A program made the position numbers and the translations under genes. Shown piece by piece: positions 9,820 to 16,626 of a stretch of DNA of 18,860 nucleotides. The stretch comes from a virus. How positions within the stretch are numbered: the stretch's first letter is position 1; each line of letters opens with the position of its first letter. The notes beneath the pieces are model-generated. The model made no database searches, was not told the origin of the DNA, and saw only the letters and a program-made list of their open reading frames with translations. The stretch lies in UHGV virus genome UHGV-0099331; one strand, 5' to 3'.

Positions 9820-9835
9820 GACCTCTCTTCTCTAA

Positions 9836-9901
9836 CTAAGGCACCGAACTAAGAAAAGTTTGGTGTTTTCTCTTGCCATAATAACTAAGTTAAGTTAGAT
9901 T
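9836..9901 (+). promoter_or_regulatory. OL/PL-like operator-promoter downstream of cI
   Basis: Three CTAAG half-site occurrences (9836, 9849, 9885-9898 as CTAAG-N4-GTTAG) matching the OR half-sites. Plus-strand promoter -35 TTGCCA (9873-9878), 17 bp spacer, -10 TAGATT (9896-9901). Confidence 0.45.
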
Positions 9902-9989
9902 TTATATCAAAGATAACGAACAGGCAGGACGCCCACGAAGTAGCCGCCTGGGGCATATGAAGTCCAGGATGATTCGTTAGCAACAAAAA

Positions 9990-10054
9990 AGCGCCCTACA
10001 GGACGCTTAGCTCTTTAACAATCTGGTCCCCATCAACAAGTAACTGATAACTTG
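9990..10054 (+). promoter_or_regulatory. nut-like leader: boxA consensus flanked by two small hairpins
   Basis: AGCTCTTTAACAA at 10009-10021 matches boxA (TGCTCTTTAACAA) at 12 of 13 positions. Hairpins at 9990-10007 and 10037-10054. Confidence 0.35.
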
Positions 10055-10066
10055 AGGAGATGTGAA

Positions 10067-10273
10067 ATGCACAAAACAGAACCCAAAATCGTCGCGCCTG
10101 GCTACACAGATGAGGAAATTTATGAGTGGATGACAAAGAAGCTGGCAGCTATAAACCAGCTTCGTGAAGTGCTGTCTTATCGACAGGAAACAATAGACTC
10201 CTTAAAAAAACTGGATCAGGAAATCACGGTTTTATCACAGGATGTTACTTTAGATATTGTGCAGACAAATTAG
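10067..10273 (+). CDS. Hypothetical small protein (68 aa), first gene of the PL-like operon
   Basis: ATG at 10067 with GGAG at 7 nt; AT-rich; predicted helical. Not arginine-rich, so not an obvious N homolog. Confidence 0.5.
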   Translation: MHKTEPKIVAPGYTDEEIYEWMTKKLAAINQLREVLSYRQETIDSLKKLDQEITVLSQDVTLDIVQTN

Positions 10274-10679
10274 GATCCCATTCATTTTCGTCAAAATCAT
10301 CAAAGTGATGAATTTGTGATCTCCAGTCTCGATAATCTAAAAATTTCTGGGCGGTTACGCTTATTTTATCAAGTGTGAGTTCATCCTGAATTGAAAGAAG
10401 AAGTTCATCAAATTTCATCTCATTAATCTGTTTTGGCATCCAGTGATGCTTCATCAGAATAAGGTGAACCAGAGCCTTTTTCCCATTCAACTGATTATAG
10501 GGAGTGCCGAATTTCTTCCGGTGCTCATGTAAGACAAGGTCCAAAAGAGTAAGTAATGTTGCCCTTGATTCAACTTTGCTTATTTCGACTGATGACACTA
10601 CCCCACTGATTTCAATGCCCCGATACTTTCCAACATTTTCACAGTGGGATTTGTACAGCGTATAGATATTACCGGACAT
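10245..10679 (-). CDS. Hypothetical protein (144 aa), AT-rich, convergent with and 3'-overlapping the 68 aa gene
   Basis: ATG at 10679 with AAGGA Shine-Dalgarno. Low GC relative to the phage backbone. No recognisable family. Confidence 0.55.
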   Translation of the reverse strand: MSGNIYTLYKSHCENVGKYRGIEISGVVSSVEISKVESRATLLTLLDLVLHEHRKKFGTPYNQLNGKKALVHLILMKHHWMPKQINEMKFDELLLSIQDELTLDKISVTAQKFLDYRDWRSQIHHFDDFDENEWDPNLSAQYLK

Positions 10680-10963
10680 TTCTTTTCCTTTTGCATTGTT
10701 GGGGATAACCAGATTAACCGAATCCTTGTTGTTGGGGAATAACTAGGTCCACCTCGCCTGATGTGGCTAAAAGCAGGCACATAACAGCTAAGTATTTTCA
10801 ACCAGAGAGAATCCTTAGCGTTGTGGTGAATGCGGCTCAGCGCACGCGGGTTAAGGTTGAGGCTGACAGTCGACCTTCTGTGGATACCCACCCGCCTGGT
10901 GTGCAACCTTCGCCAGGCACCGGGAGGCACCCGGCACCACAACTTTATGCTGTGTGTAGTCTT

Positions 10964-11010
10964 GGCGGTACCAGCTTGTACCCTTGCTTCCGGCTGGTAC
11001 CGTCCTTTTT
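10964..11010 (+). terminator. Strong Rho-independent terminator (tL-like)
   Basis: 12 bp stem GGCGGTACCAGC / GCTGGTACCG(T)CC with a 17 nt loop, followed by TTTTT (11006-11010). Confidence 0.55.
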
Positions 11011-11012
11011 AC

Positions 11013-11098
11013 AAAACAGAGAAGAGCATCACCGGACGACGGGCTCATAACCCAATCCATCCGGGCGGCAGTCACCGCAGGTGTTCTTCTCTGTTTTG
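11013..11098 (+). terminator. Long imperfect hairpin with nested inner stem; second terminator-like structure or structured RNA
   Basis: Outer arms AACAGAGAAGAGCA (11013-11026) and TGTTCTTCTCTGTT (11082-11095), followed by TTTTG. Inner GC-rich stem CACCGG...CCGGGCGG...CACCGCAGGTG. Confidence 0.4.
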
Positions 11099-11147
11099 TG
11101 GAGAAACTAACCGACCTTGCAGGGTCGATATGATGAGGAGCAGCAAA

Positions 11148-13690: not shown

Positions 13691-13900
13691 ATGGCAAAAC
13701 TAATGAAAGCGAGCCAATGGGGACGCCGTGAATTCTCTAATGGCTCAATTCCTGACAACCGAACGATAAAACGCTGGGTCGAGAACGGTCTGCTCATGGG
13801 GCGTATCGTGGACGGTTCTGTTTTTGTCTGCGAAACAGAAAAATGGGGAGTCGACTCAATGGTTAGTCAAGCTGTTCGCAAGTTAATAAATGAGGGATGA
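13691..13900 (+). CDS. Excisionase (Xis-like)
   Basis: Small ORF immediately upstream of int, with its stop overlapping the int start (ATGA). ATG at 13691 preceded by GGAGA. RTIKRWVENGLL...DGSVFVC resembles lambda Xis (RWVRE...DGREYLF). Confidence 0.6.
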   Translation: MAKLMKASQWGRREFSNGSIPDNRTIKRWVENGLLMGRIVDGSVFVCETEKWGVDSMVSQAVRKLINEG

Positions 13901-15081
13901 CCATGGCGGCAAGGCCACGTAAAAAAGAATACAGACATCTTCCTGATTATCTGGTTTTTGATAAAGATCGAGGTGTTTATAAATTCACACTTATTACCGG
14001 AAAAAAGAAAAATATAGGTAAGGATCGGGCAATAGCCGTTGCAATCGCCAGAGAGTACAACCTGAGGATGCGATCAGAATTATACCCATCAGTGGATAAT
14101 CTTATTAGAGAATCTGGCGGGGTCACCGGAGAAGCAAAACCATTTGCTGAACATGTCGATCACATAATGGCCAGAATTATCGAAGACGAACGACCTTCCC
14201 AGAGTACCTTAGATGACTGGAAAAATGACGCTCTACGCGTAAAAGCGTTTTTCGTAAATGTTCCGGCATGCGATATCGAACTTGAACACGTTAATGCCTA
14301 CATCAACAAATATCATGCCAGCGCATCCGCAAATGTGCAGAACAGAAAGGTCAGCTTTCTTAAAAAGTTGTTCTCTTATGCGGTCGATGAATCACTAATG
14401 CAGGATAACCCGGCCATCAGAAAAAAAATGCGTAGGACTGATGAGAAGAAAAGACGGCGCCTGTCACTCGAGCATTTTATAGCTATCAGGCAGGCCGCTG
14501 CACCATGGTTAAGAACAGCAATGGACCTAGCATTGCAGACTACACATGCACGACTCGAAGTATCGCGAATCCGTTACTCAATTCGCGAACCTAAAGACGG
14601 TTTATGTGGATGTGTTTGGTTCGAACAACCACAAAATGGCATATATGGTACACTATACATCCATAGGCAAAAAGTACAAAAAAAGGAGGCATCACATGTT
14701 GCAATACCAATTGGTGAAGAATTGAAACGGATAATTGACAATAGCCGTGACAATGTGGCCAGTCCCTTTGTCGTTCATAGAATCCCAGAACGGCATGTTA
14801 AACGCAGTAAAGAGGTTTCGCACCCAACTCAAGTTGCACCAGATTATTTGAGTCGGTCATTCTCTTCCGTGCGAGACAAACTCGGACTATGCAATCATCT
14901 AGCAATGGAACAAAGACCTACATTCCATGAAATAAGAGCTTTGGCAGCTCACCTATTTGATAAACAAGGGATTGATCCGCAGGGACGAATGGCACATAGC
15001 GATGCGAAATCTACTAAAATTTATACTAAAAATCATATAGATTGGATTGTTGTCCCTCATGGAGAAATTAAAACCGGTTAG
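13897..15081 (+). CDS. Tyrosine recombinase / phage integrase
   Basis: 394 aa; C-terminal catalytic region with HEIR...H and the KIYTKNH tyrosine motif. Confidence 0.9.
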   Translation: MTMAARPRKKEYRHLPDYLVFDKDRGVYKFTLITGKKKNIGKDRAIAVAIAREYNLRMRSELYPSVDNLIRESGGVTGEAKPFAEHVDHIMARIIEDERPSQSTLDDWKNDALRVKAFFVNVPACDIELEHVNAYINKYHASASANVQNRKVSFLKKLFSYAVDESLMQDNPAIRKKMRRTDEKKRRRLSLEHFIAIRQAAAPWLRTAMDLALQTTHARLEVSRIRYSIREPKDGLCGCVWFEQPQNGIYGTLYIHRQKVQKKEASHVAIPIGEELKRIIDNSRDNVASPFVVHRIPERHVKRSKEVSHPTQVAPDYLSRSFSSVRDKLGLCNHLAMEQRPTFHEIRALAAHLFDKQGIDPQGRMAHSDAKSTKIYTKNHIDWIVVPHGEIKTG

Positions 15082-15218
15082 TTATTAAATTCTCCACTTT
15101 ATTTTGACTGACAATAACGGTTGCTAAGGCATAGAGTAAAGCTTAATTTAAAAGGCAGTTCTATGCCCATTTACCATAACTTCTCCCTTGTCCAGAAAGC
15201 AATATTTATTAATAAAAT

Positions 15219-16175
15219 TTATTTACCCTTATTATACTCTTCAGTAATCTTATTCATGGATGATATATATTTATCCAGCCCACCATAGTTGGCTATCATT
15301 CGAAATGAATTACGGTACTCTGCCATTTTCACATCATGATTAGTAATTCCACACCAGCCACAAACTTTATTTTCCATGTTTAAAGGCTCATAACATTTTT
15401 TACATTGCCTTGATGCAGGTATTATATTGCCATTAATAAATTGGTGTGATTTGAGATTTTGAGATAAAAGAAATGGTGTAGTTGTTGTTTTTCCTATTAC
15501 CATTTCGAAATATCTACATTTAGCCTTTTTAGCTAAAGATTGAATTTTCTGCTTTAATAAATCATTTGATTTGTGCCCAACTATAACTCCAGTTATACAA
15601 TTAATCGGTACCGGAAGGAGCATAAGATTGTCATTCAGTTTAGTAAGTGCTTTCTCATTAATTATTACGCGACGTTCCTGCTCATAACTCCAGCAAGTTT
15701 GTTTTGTCAAATATGCGGCTGTCATTATACAGGATTGTAGCCAGTAGATATAACGAGGTTTACAGATATGAAATGCTCTCGCCAGAATGTCTTCAATACC
15801 TGTATCTGGAGAATCTTTATATTCAACATCTGCTATTGAACTATGATCCTGGAAGCCGATTTCATCCAAATACTTTTTAAACTTCTCCTCATTAATCTCT
15901 ATTACAAAACCAGAAGAATTACCTGCATAATGTGCCCACATAGGTGGTATCACAGGGCTTTTCGTAAAACAAGTTGCTGGTTGTTTTGTAACCATGCCAA
16001 TCATTTCATTGTAAAATGCTAACTCATCAGAACCGCGATTAAAATCAATAGTAAGGAAAAACTCATAGGGATCATTATATTCATGTAAATGAGAGAATTT
16101 TATTCCTATATGTGTTTCATCCATCATCAATTTATCAATTATATCCGCTCCCATAAACTTATACAAATTGGTCAT
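15219..16175 (-). CDS. DUF2971-like protein with C-terminal zinc ribbon (cargo gene, AT-rich)
   Basis: ATG at 16175 with AAGGAG at 6 nt (318 aa). Motifs LYKF...FSHLHEYNDPYEF, CFTKSP...MWAHYAG and CWSYEQERR fit my recollection of DUF2971; C-terminal CKKCYEP...CGWCG. Markedly AT-rich. Confidence 0.6.
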   Translation of the reverse strand: MTNLYKFMGADIIDKLMMDETHIGIKFSHLHEYNDPYEFFLTIDFNRGSDELAFYNEMIGMVTKQPATCFTKSPVIPPMWAHYAGNSSGFVIEINEEKFKKYLDEIGFQDHSSIADVEYKDSPDTGIEDILARAFHICKPRYIYWLQSCIMTAAYLTKQTCWSYEQERRVIINEKALTKLNDNLMLLPVPINCITGVIVGHKSNDLLKQKIQSLAKKAKCRYFEMVIGKTTTTPFLLSQNLKSHQFINGNIIPASRQCKKCYEPLNMENKVCGWCGITNHDVKMAEYRNSFRMIANYGGLDKYISSMNKITEEYNKGK

Positions 16176-16261
16176 ATACAACTCCTTTTTTATAAAATAA
16201 CATTTTAAATCATATGATTATGGAGGCACAAAATCCAGTAATTAGTTTTCAAGCCTGTTGT

Positions 16262-16626
16262 GATGTAGTTCGAGGACAAACTGAAACGTATTATTGATAA
16301 CAGTCGCGATAACGTTGCCTGCCCGTATATCGTTCACCGTATACCGAGCGTAATAACAAACGCAGTAAAGAGGTATCCGCACCTGCCTATCTTAGCCATA
16401 CTTTTCATTGCCCCGTGATTCGTTAGGCTTGTGTAATAATTTGACGATGGAGCTGCGCCCCCACATTCCACAAAATACGCGCACTAGCTGCATTTTGTTT
16501 GATAAACAGGGAGTAGACCACAAGGGCTTATAGCCCACAGCGACGCGAAATCAACGAAAATTTATACGCGGAACCATATGATTGGGTAATGCTTCCGCAC
16601 GGTGAAATTAAATATAATGCATAATA
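16262..16626 (+). pseudogene. Integrase 3'-end remnant (degraded duplicate of the int C-terminal region)
   Basis: DNA-level similarity to int 14716-15081: shared blocks GAAACG-ATTATTGA-AA-AG-CG-GA-AA, AAACGCAGTAAAGAGGT, GCGA-GCGAAATC-AC-AAAATTTATAC and GAAATTAAA. The conserved stretch translates as KLKRIIDNSRDNVA (int has LKRIIDNSRDNVA); the central part is degenerate and lacks an intact frame. Confidence 0.7.

Follow-up and report, generated by a model that had tools for sequence, protein, structure and literature searches.

The gene considered here occupies positions 15219-16175 on the minus strand of UHGV virus genome UHGV-0099331, an 18,860-nucleotide stretch of DNA (hereafter the window) that represents a lambdoid prophage of Escherichia coli; this prophage is of the ymf/yfd type and carries a cI-like S24 repressor along with yfdP/Q/R and int. 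The gene encodes a DUF2971 protein with a zinc-ribbon-like C-terminal tail and is almost certainly a stand-alone cargo gene whose product has the fold of an ADP-ribosyltransferase (ART). An earlier note, made from the sequence alone, had proposed it as a candidate single-gene defence or exclusion factor. The gene and its immediate surroundings comprise the following features.

15219..16175, minus strand: DUF2971 coding sequence, 318 amino acids plus stop, supported by open reading frame listing, translation, Pfam, RefSeq and homologues
15486..16175, minus strand: N-terminal ART-like DUF2971 core, residues 1 to about 230
15675..15683, minus strand: E165-Q-E167, the family-invariant ExE and putative catalytic motif III, invariant in both alignments
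15222..15485, minus strand: subfamily-specific C-terminal module, residues 231-318, predicted as beta-hairpins, four-cysteine knuckles and three helices
15351..15404, minus strand: CxxC-N10-CxxC zinc-ribbon-like cluster, C258/C261/C272/C275, invariant in 46 sequences, with a weak match to DZR
16182..16187, minus strand: Shine-Dalgarno sequence AAGGAG, with a 6-nt spacer to the ATG; its GGA is kept in orthologues
16209..16237, minus strand: putative weak sigma-70 promoter TGGATT-17-TATGAT, positionally conserved in orthologues and below the scanner threshold
15153..15168, minus strand: short terminator-like hairpin between the convergent int and DUF2971 genes
13897..15081, plus strand: prophage tyrosine integrase int, with a lambda-type arm-binding domain

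The longest open reading frame (ORF) at this position covers 15219..16181 on the minus strand from a TTG start, and an in-frame ATG at 16175 gives the 318-residue version, which coincides with RefSeq WP_000183538.1 ('DUF2971 domain-containing protein'). This is a real gene; a chance ORF is excluded because 318 codons are maintained in DNA of 33% GC and 48 full-length homologues exist. The extent of the protein, its own Shine-Dalgarno sequence and its transcription opposite to int are all as the earlier note had described them; the Shine-Dalgarno sequence lies six nucleotides before the ATG, and the gene converges on int (13897-15081, plus strand). So is its AT richness: the GC content of the gene is 0.333 against 0.466 for the whole window, and its third-position GC (0.273) lies below the 0.35-0.44 of int and the other prophage genes, so that the gene is compositionally foreign even inside its own prophage.

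A consensus promoter scan found nothing directly upstream of the gene, and its total matches were at shuffle expectation. Alignment of orthologues from E. coli, Klebsiella aerogenes, Enterobacter and Pantoea agglomerans nevertheless revealed a positionally conserved element, TGGATT-17 nt-TA(T/A/G)GAT, the first hexamer of which is degenerate in Enterobacter. In the window this element reads TGGATT-17-TATGAT at 16237-16209 (minus strand), about 30 nt before the ATG. The orthologues that share it sit in different mobile elements, and it is plausibly a weak sigma-70 promoter that moves with the gene. The same positions, read as TGGATT(TT)-N-TAnGATTT in the window and in loci L010, L020 and L007, also form GGATTT/TGATTT direct repeats about 22 bp apart, which could be a regulator-binding site instead of, or besides, a promoter.

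Membership of the DUF2971 family, which had been suggested from sequence motifs, is borne out by Pfam PF11185 (E=1.8e-9, 39.3 bits against a gathering cutoff of 22), which matches residues 79-170 over the full model (1-89 of 89). The 48 full-length homologues, retrieved by a word-indexed search, are 303-348 amino acids long and 33-99% identical to the window protein. In an alignment of 46 of them, reaching down to 34% identity, the invariant residues of the core are N34-D35-P36-E38, P78-M-W-A-H-Y83, Y119, K139, R141, Y155, K158, W162, Y164-E165-x-E167-x-R169 and G200. A second alignment combined the query with about 28 distant relatives (32 sequences at 20-44% identity), and the family-wide motifs YK, NDP, MWxHY and W.YExE.R, all present in the window protein, are invariant there as well; the residues that remain fixed when distant relatives are included are K6, N34, D35, P36, M79, W80, Y83, G89, Y119, K158, W162, E165, E167, R169 and G200.

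These conserved residues agree with a computational survey (PMC12522546) that assigned the family to the ART superfamily, close to DarT and AbiGi, and noted in it a conserved Tyr and an ExE motif. The DUF2971 domain is accordingly described there and modelled here as an ART-like fold, predicted to be closest to DarT and Tpt1, and E165-Q-E167 is its putative catalytic ExE; the statement of the earlier note that the function of the protein is unknown is thus out of date. More general searches added little. The PHROG that contains the core domain is of unknown function, no other ART model of Pfam matched (only DUF2971 was reported, even at a maximum E of 10), an NCBIfam search of the protein gave no match, and Foldseek against BFVD returned nothing at E<=1e-3. 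A sequence search of the PDB reached no solved structure, and the 'ADP-ribosylation factor' GTPases that appeared in it (E 0.36-1.7) were rejected, despite their name, as chance matches to a PxW.HY.N.xG string.

The tail reads C258-KK-C261 ... C272-GW-C275, as the CxxC...CxxC ending noticed earlier, and all four cysteines together with E263, P264 and W274 are invariant in the 46 homologues. The Pfam double-zinc-ribbon model DZR scores 17.4 bits on it, below its threshold of 27.3. Modelled alone, the tail reached a pLDDT (predicted local distance difference test) of 89, and a structural search with this isolated model gave no informative neighbour. The tail is a predicted zinc binder. Its restricted distribution emerged from an exhaustive profile search of 1.84 billion cluster representatives (50% identity), which found 15,999 relatives at E<=1e-3 and only 89 at E<=1e-30, the matches beyond about E=1e-25 spanning profile positions 60-230 only. 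Because distant DUF2971 relatives stop near residue 240 of the window protein and lack the cysteine cluster yet share the core residues, the zinc-ribbon tail appears to be a subfamily-specific addition onto a conserved, catalytic-looking core. The distant relatives also carry a long helical insert after the NDPFE motif, which is missing in the zinc-ribbon subfamily.

Homologues of the gene are widely scattered. One genome per species was scanned, for 185,579 species in all, and this yielded 117 relatives, in hosts that include Proteobacteria, Microbacterium, Chloroflexota, Nitrospiraceae and Opitutaceae among others, and the subfamily spreads over soil, marine and plant bacteria and metagenome-assembled genomes (MAGs) of many phyla. 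About 24 full-length copies are present in IMG/VR, of which 13 lie no more than 2 kb from the end of a contig, and PLSDB contains full-length zinc-ribbon homologues on Shewanella, Agrobacterium and Rhizobium plasmids. Among 50,697 sequenced phage records there was no close homologue, with weak relatives in two phages. Hundreds of plasmids from Klebsiella (320 records), Enterobacter, Salmonella and E. coli carry a tail-less DUF2971 paralogue that is about 28% identical over residues 1-215.

Eight homologue contexts were inspected by hand. The Morganella homologue lies in the nin-like region of lambdoid prophages, that of Edwardsiella in the moron slot between Q and lysis, that of Pseudomonas syringae at a prophage end past the tail and lysis genes, and that of K. 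aerogenes in an int-att slot. The Pantoea homologue is found at the edge of a P4-like satellite, beside an RNase-A-like toxin/immunity pair; the Serratia homologue on a ParM/StbA element, beside GmrSD and a type III restriction-modification (R-M) system; and the Pseudomonas asplenii homologue near AbiJ-NTD4 and DUF4917 genes. The Rhizobium locus was ambiguous. In K. aerogenes an 82%-identical homologue forms the same convergent pair with int, and homology to the window covers 13805-16214 and then passes straight to 18107-18288; DUF2971 is therefore the sole cargo there. When 436 ORFs from 80 species-level loci (three genes to either side) were clustered, no neighbour family occurred in more than three of the 80, and no conserved antitoxin, macrodomain, NADAR, chaperone or immunity gene recurred beside the DUF2971 gene. 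On both grounds, the absence of a recurrent neighbour and its solitary position in K. aerogenes, the zinc-ribbon DUF2971 gene is stand-alone, without a partner gene, in keeping with the earlier description of it as stand-alone cargo next to int.

The neighbourhoods of the homologues are rich in defence genes. In the first 43 loci, 140 ORFs (two genes to either side) match 228 PADLOC models, whereas 123 control ORFs at least 7 kb away in the same loci match 87, most of which trace to one or two E1-E2/JAB proteins and a single LmuB; the comparison is crude, in that models rather than proteins are counted and the two sets are not independent. The neighbours include ThsA (three members), ThsB, LmuA/LmuB (two), GajB, AriA (two), AbiLi (two), PbeA (two), Dsr1, mad3 (three) and PDC-S66 (three), and the Pfam domains SIR2_2 and TIR_2 were each seen three times. 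This agrees with the contexts inspected by hand and with the match of the protein itself to PDC-S31, a candidate system of PADLOC-DB that is likewise single-gene. Five hidden Markov models of PDC-S31 match the window protein (best E=4.9e-22), the best matches spanning residues 68-228 or 4-132 only, that is, the core and not the tail. PDC entries in PADLOC are computational candidates, and no paper in the literature searched mentions PDC-S31.

The closest precedent by published description is Aristaios, a 316-amino-acid DUF2971 protein of the Lactococcus plasmid pUCCL641_199, which acts as a single-gene abortive infection system and has an ART-like predicted fold (PMC11381338). Aristaios suppresses phage transcription and protein production (PMC13064643, PMC12967558). 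The window gene shares its single-gene arrangement without a partner, but belongs to an enterobacterial prophage rather than a Gram-positive plasmid, and the two are likened by description and not by sequence; when the query and a core-only relative were compared with PLSDB by tblastn, no Lactococcus record was listed. Since the ART domain covers most of Aristaios (PMC11381338), and the tail is common to only 89 of about 16,000 representatives, Aristaios probably lacks the zinc ribbon. The PDC-S31 match, the validated family member and the defence-rich neighbourhoods together uphold the candidacy of the gene as a single-gene defence factor, and we regard the protein as probably anti-phage.

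Other defence ARTs offer partial parallels. DarT ADP-ribosylates DNA bases in defence (PMC11543638, PMC11825919); the DarT of DarTG is about 10% identical to the window protein, which has no Pfam DarT/DUF4433 match and carries an extra zinc-ribbon module, and the macrodomain or NADAR antitoxin of DarTG neither adjoins the DUF2971 gene in the window nor recurs in the 80 loci. CmdT ADP-ribosylates mRNA and blocks translation (PMC11618068). As a defence ART that halts phage gene expression it resembles the reported phenotype of Aristaios, and it is by this phenotype, not by sequence or structure, that it is likened to the window protein; it needs an antitoxin and a SecB-like chaperone that senses a capsid protein, however, and neither is found in the window or in homologous loci. 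For the Tpt1/KptA RNA 2'-phosphotransferases, the match to the window protein spans only 80-101 residues. The window protein shows no evident counterpart of the Arg-His-Arg-Arg catalytic tetrad of Tpt1. Tpt1 serves as a housekeeping enzyme, whereas the window gene is mobile cargo.

On balance, we lean toward a lysogen-expressed, self-contained, two-domain anti-phage ART effector, carried as a moron of the lambdoid prophage, in which we infer catalysis, NAD+ use, target, trigger, the role of the tail and the defence phenotype. The N-terminal DUF2971 domain would be an ART-fold enzyme of the nucleic-acid-acting, DarT/Tpt1-like branch, and the C-terminal four-cysteine zinc ribbon with its helices could serve in target (nucleic-acid) binding, infection sensing or autoinhibition, replacing the partner proteins of DarTG and CmdTAC. 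In the lysogen, the gene would probably be expressed from its own weak promoter. Upon infection by another phage, the enzyme would use NAD+ to ADP-ribosylate DNA or RNA or, less likely, a protein of the expression machinery, and the resulting shutdown of phage gene expression would abort the infection, as reported for Aristaios. That nucleic acid specifically is modified we rate as a reasonable possibility, somewhat less likely than not.

Phage ARTs modify host machinery, and the protein could instead benefit its own phage in lytic growth by reprogramming host transcription or translation or by countering host defences, like T4 Alt, ModA and ModB. The Morganella prophage homologue, co-oriented in an early-right (nin-like) operon between Dam/Lar and Q, would fit such a role, as would the PHROG that contains the core and the weak relatives in two sequenced phages. 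We nonetheless consider it unlikely, given that homologues reside outside phages (with GmrSD and type III R-M on the ParM/StbA element, and on the Shewanella, Agrobacterium and Rhizobium plasmids), at a P4-like satellite edge and with Thoeris, Lamassu and Gabija genes around them, and that the 50,697 sequenced phage records contain no close homologue. Moreover, the E. coli gene opposes int, has its own conserved upstream region and lies at the att-proximal edge, all typical of lysogen-expressed morons.

Just as improbable to us is a toxin-like addiction or selfish stabilisation module, or an inert binder of NAD or ADP-ribose, without a direct anti-phage role. ART-fold toxins are common in toxin-antitoxin and addiction systems, and the foreign composition of the gene and its movement between mobile elements would fit as well. 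An addiction module, however, normally requires an antitoxin or immunity neighbour, and none is conserved in the 80 loci; the ExE and other motifs are strictly retained over a span of roughly 20-99% identity, which speaks for an active enzyme; and the precedent in the family is abortive infection. That pathogenic E. coli secrete the protein as a virulence effector or toxin is very improbable, even though effectors have been predicted among DUF2971 proteins (Legionella lpg1268; about 18% of the family; PMC12522546) and the window has matches in ST131/O25b:H4 clinical isolates. There is no hydrophobic leader at the N-terminus (MTNLYKF...), which forms the conserved first strand of the catalytic domain, no secretion-system or immunity gene recurs nearby in the 80 loci, and both the environmental breadth of the subfamily and carriage by E. 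coli from dog, pig, pork, lettuce and sewage speak against it. The anti-phage effector remains our preferred explanation.

The gene occupies one part of a variable region at the edge of the prophage, the features of which are listed below.

15082..18106, strand not applicable: variable cargo slot from the int stop codon to the conserved attachment (att) arm, defined by BLAST breakpoints against loci L016, L017, L018 and L010 and by the occurrence of alternative cargo
16270..16624, plus strand: delta-int, a decayed 3' fragment of a second integrase gene, at the junction of two cargo modules
16659..17799, minus strand: second cargo, an overlapping two-gene pair (255-amino-acid TPR-like protein at 17032-17799, 127-amino-acid protein at 16659-17042)
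18238..18291, plus strand: attR core, an exact 54-nt copy of the tRNA-Pro 3' half plus 8 nt downstream

The prophage is integrated at tRNA-Pro, and the window up to 18237 is all prophage DNA. Integration at this site follows from the 54-nt tRNA-Pro copy together with the gene order in strain J2 (yejM, intact tRNA-Pro, IS1-truncated prophage, two hypothetical genes, yejO). Insertion inside yejO was ruled out, since strain 98218 has an intact yejO and the att core corresponds to the tRNA-Pro 3' half. Rfam and tRNA scans of the window gave no matches. Just 5' of the att core, 18200-18237 (plus strand) partly resembles the tRNA-Pro 5' half (GGCGCGG...CAGCG...GGCGCGGTGA versus GGCACGT...CAGC...AGCGCACCGT); ARAGORN finds no tRNA there, strain NC19 has a 78-nt tRNA-Pro annotated at the same end, and the segment may be a phage-borne pseudo-tRNA half. 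Farther on, in the 3' region of yejO (about 18411-18414), the window is some 630 bp short relative to strains with intact yejO (BLAST joins 18411/18414 against L016 7881 to 8511), and in the matching ST131 genome yejO is annotated by RefSeq as incomplete, with a frameshift.

The DUF2971 gene is present in 53 of 5,426 complete E. coli genomes, in a single copy each, and the 52 near-full-length copies are at least 99.7% identical. The near-identical int is restricted to 52 genomes, while int alleles of 80-95% identity occur without DUF2971 in 57 further genomes. Local BLAST against genomes with these alleles showed that homology breaks off with the stop codon of int (15069-15080) and is found again from 18107, with other cargo in between, and 15082-18106 is for this reason read as a variable, swappable cargo slot. 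The alternative cargo comprises a 289-residue hypothetical protein in MLI107, hypothetical proteins of 283 and 66 residues in NC19, and a DUF4760 protein followed by an AAA-ATPase pair in GTEN_24. In the last strain (L018, 6567-9867), the int-proximal order is DUF4760, a transposase fragment and a small-protein and AAA-ATPase pair beside a DNA primase, another candidate defence cargo, possibly with an adjacent satellite. The 'recombination-delimited cassette' of the earlier note is only loosely right: the int-to-attR slot of the prophage is variable, but the gene has no recombination sites of its own.

Beyond the DUF2971 gene, the slot holds delta-int, which has frameshifts and stop codons and is 67-75% identical to int alleles, and the two-gene pair. 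Pfam TPR matches of the 255-residue protein are all sub-threshold, the 127-residue protein gives a weak HEPN hint (E=0.099) and has an R-x6-H string, and the pair matches PHROGs 17809 and 5176 (unknown function) and no PADLOC model. The idea that the pair and DUF2971 form one system was ruled out, since K. aerogenes lacks the pair, whereas J2, where IS1 removed the remaining prophage, retains it without DUF2971; the pair is possibly an independent second cargo system. The E. coli slot would be most simply explained if an [int-DUF2971] module had become joined to what was left of an older [int'-two-gene] module, for example by deletion between tandem prophages. Elsewhere in the prophage, the 1.3 kb between the cI-like repressor and yfdP (9820-11147), unannotated in the matching RefSeq record, contains an AT-rich ORF of 144 codons at 10245-10679 (minus strand) with no Pfam or PADLOC match, followed by a GC-rich (0.54) segment of overlapping, spurious-looking ORFs, and may be a further moron slot.

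In summary, the DUF2971 family, its ART-like nature and its defence role were already known, as were the PADLOC candidate flag and the RefSeq name. New are the zinc-ribbon-tailed, insert-less subfamily (89 of about 16,000 representatives), the lack of a partner gene for zinc-ribbon DUF2971 and the definition of a swappable int-attR slot in E. coli tRNA-Pro prophages. This int-attR interval (proL/yejO) is a hotspot of exchangeable cargo in clinically relevant lineages, including ST131. With about 16,000 cluster representatives at 50% identity and one validated anti-phage member, the key questions for DUF2971 are its substrate, trigger and control, and the E. coli prophage copy, for which the BASEL and T-series phages, simple genetics and well-defined point mutants (ExE, four Cys) are at hand, provides a tractable handle on the substrate and on how an ART without an antitoxin stays harmless. 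More speculatively, the zinc-ribbon subfamily may be a self-regulating nucleic-acid ART of undescribed DNA or RNA specificity, in which the tail replaces the antitoxin or chaperone as a built-in phage sensor or autoinhibitor; if true, ART-based immunity would gain a new regulatory logic, and one accessible in an E. coli prophage that is genetically tractable.
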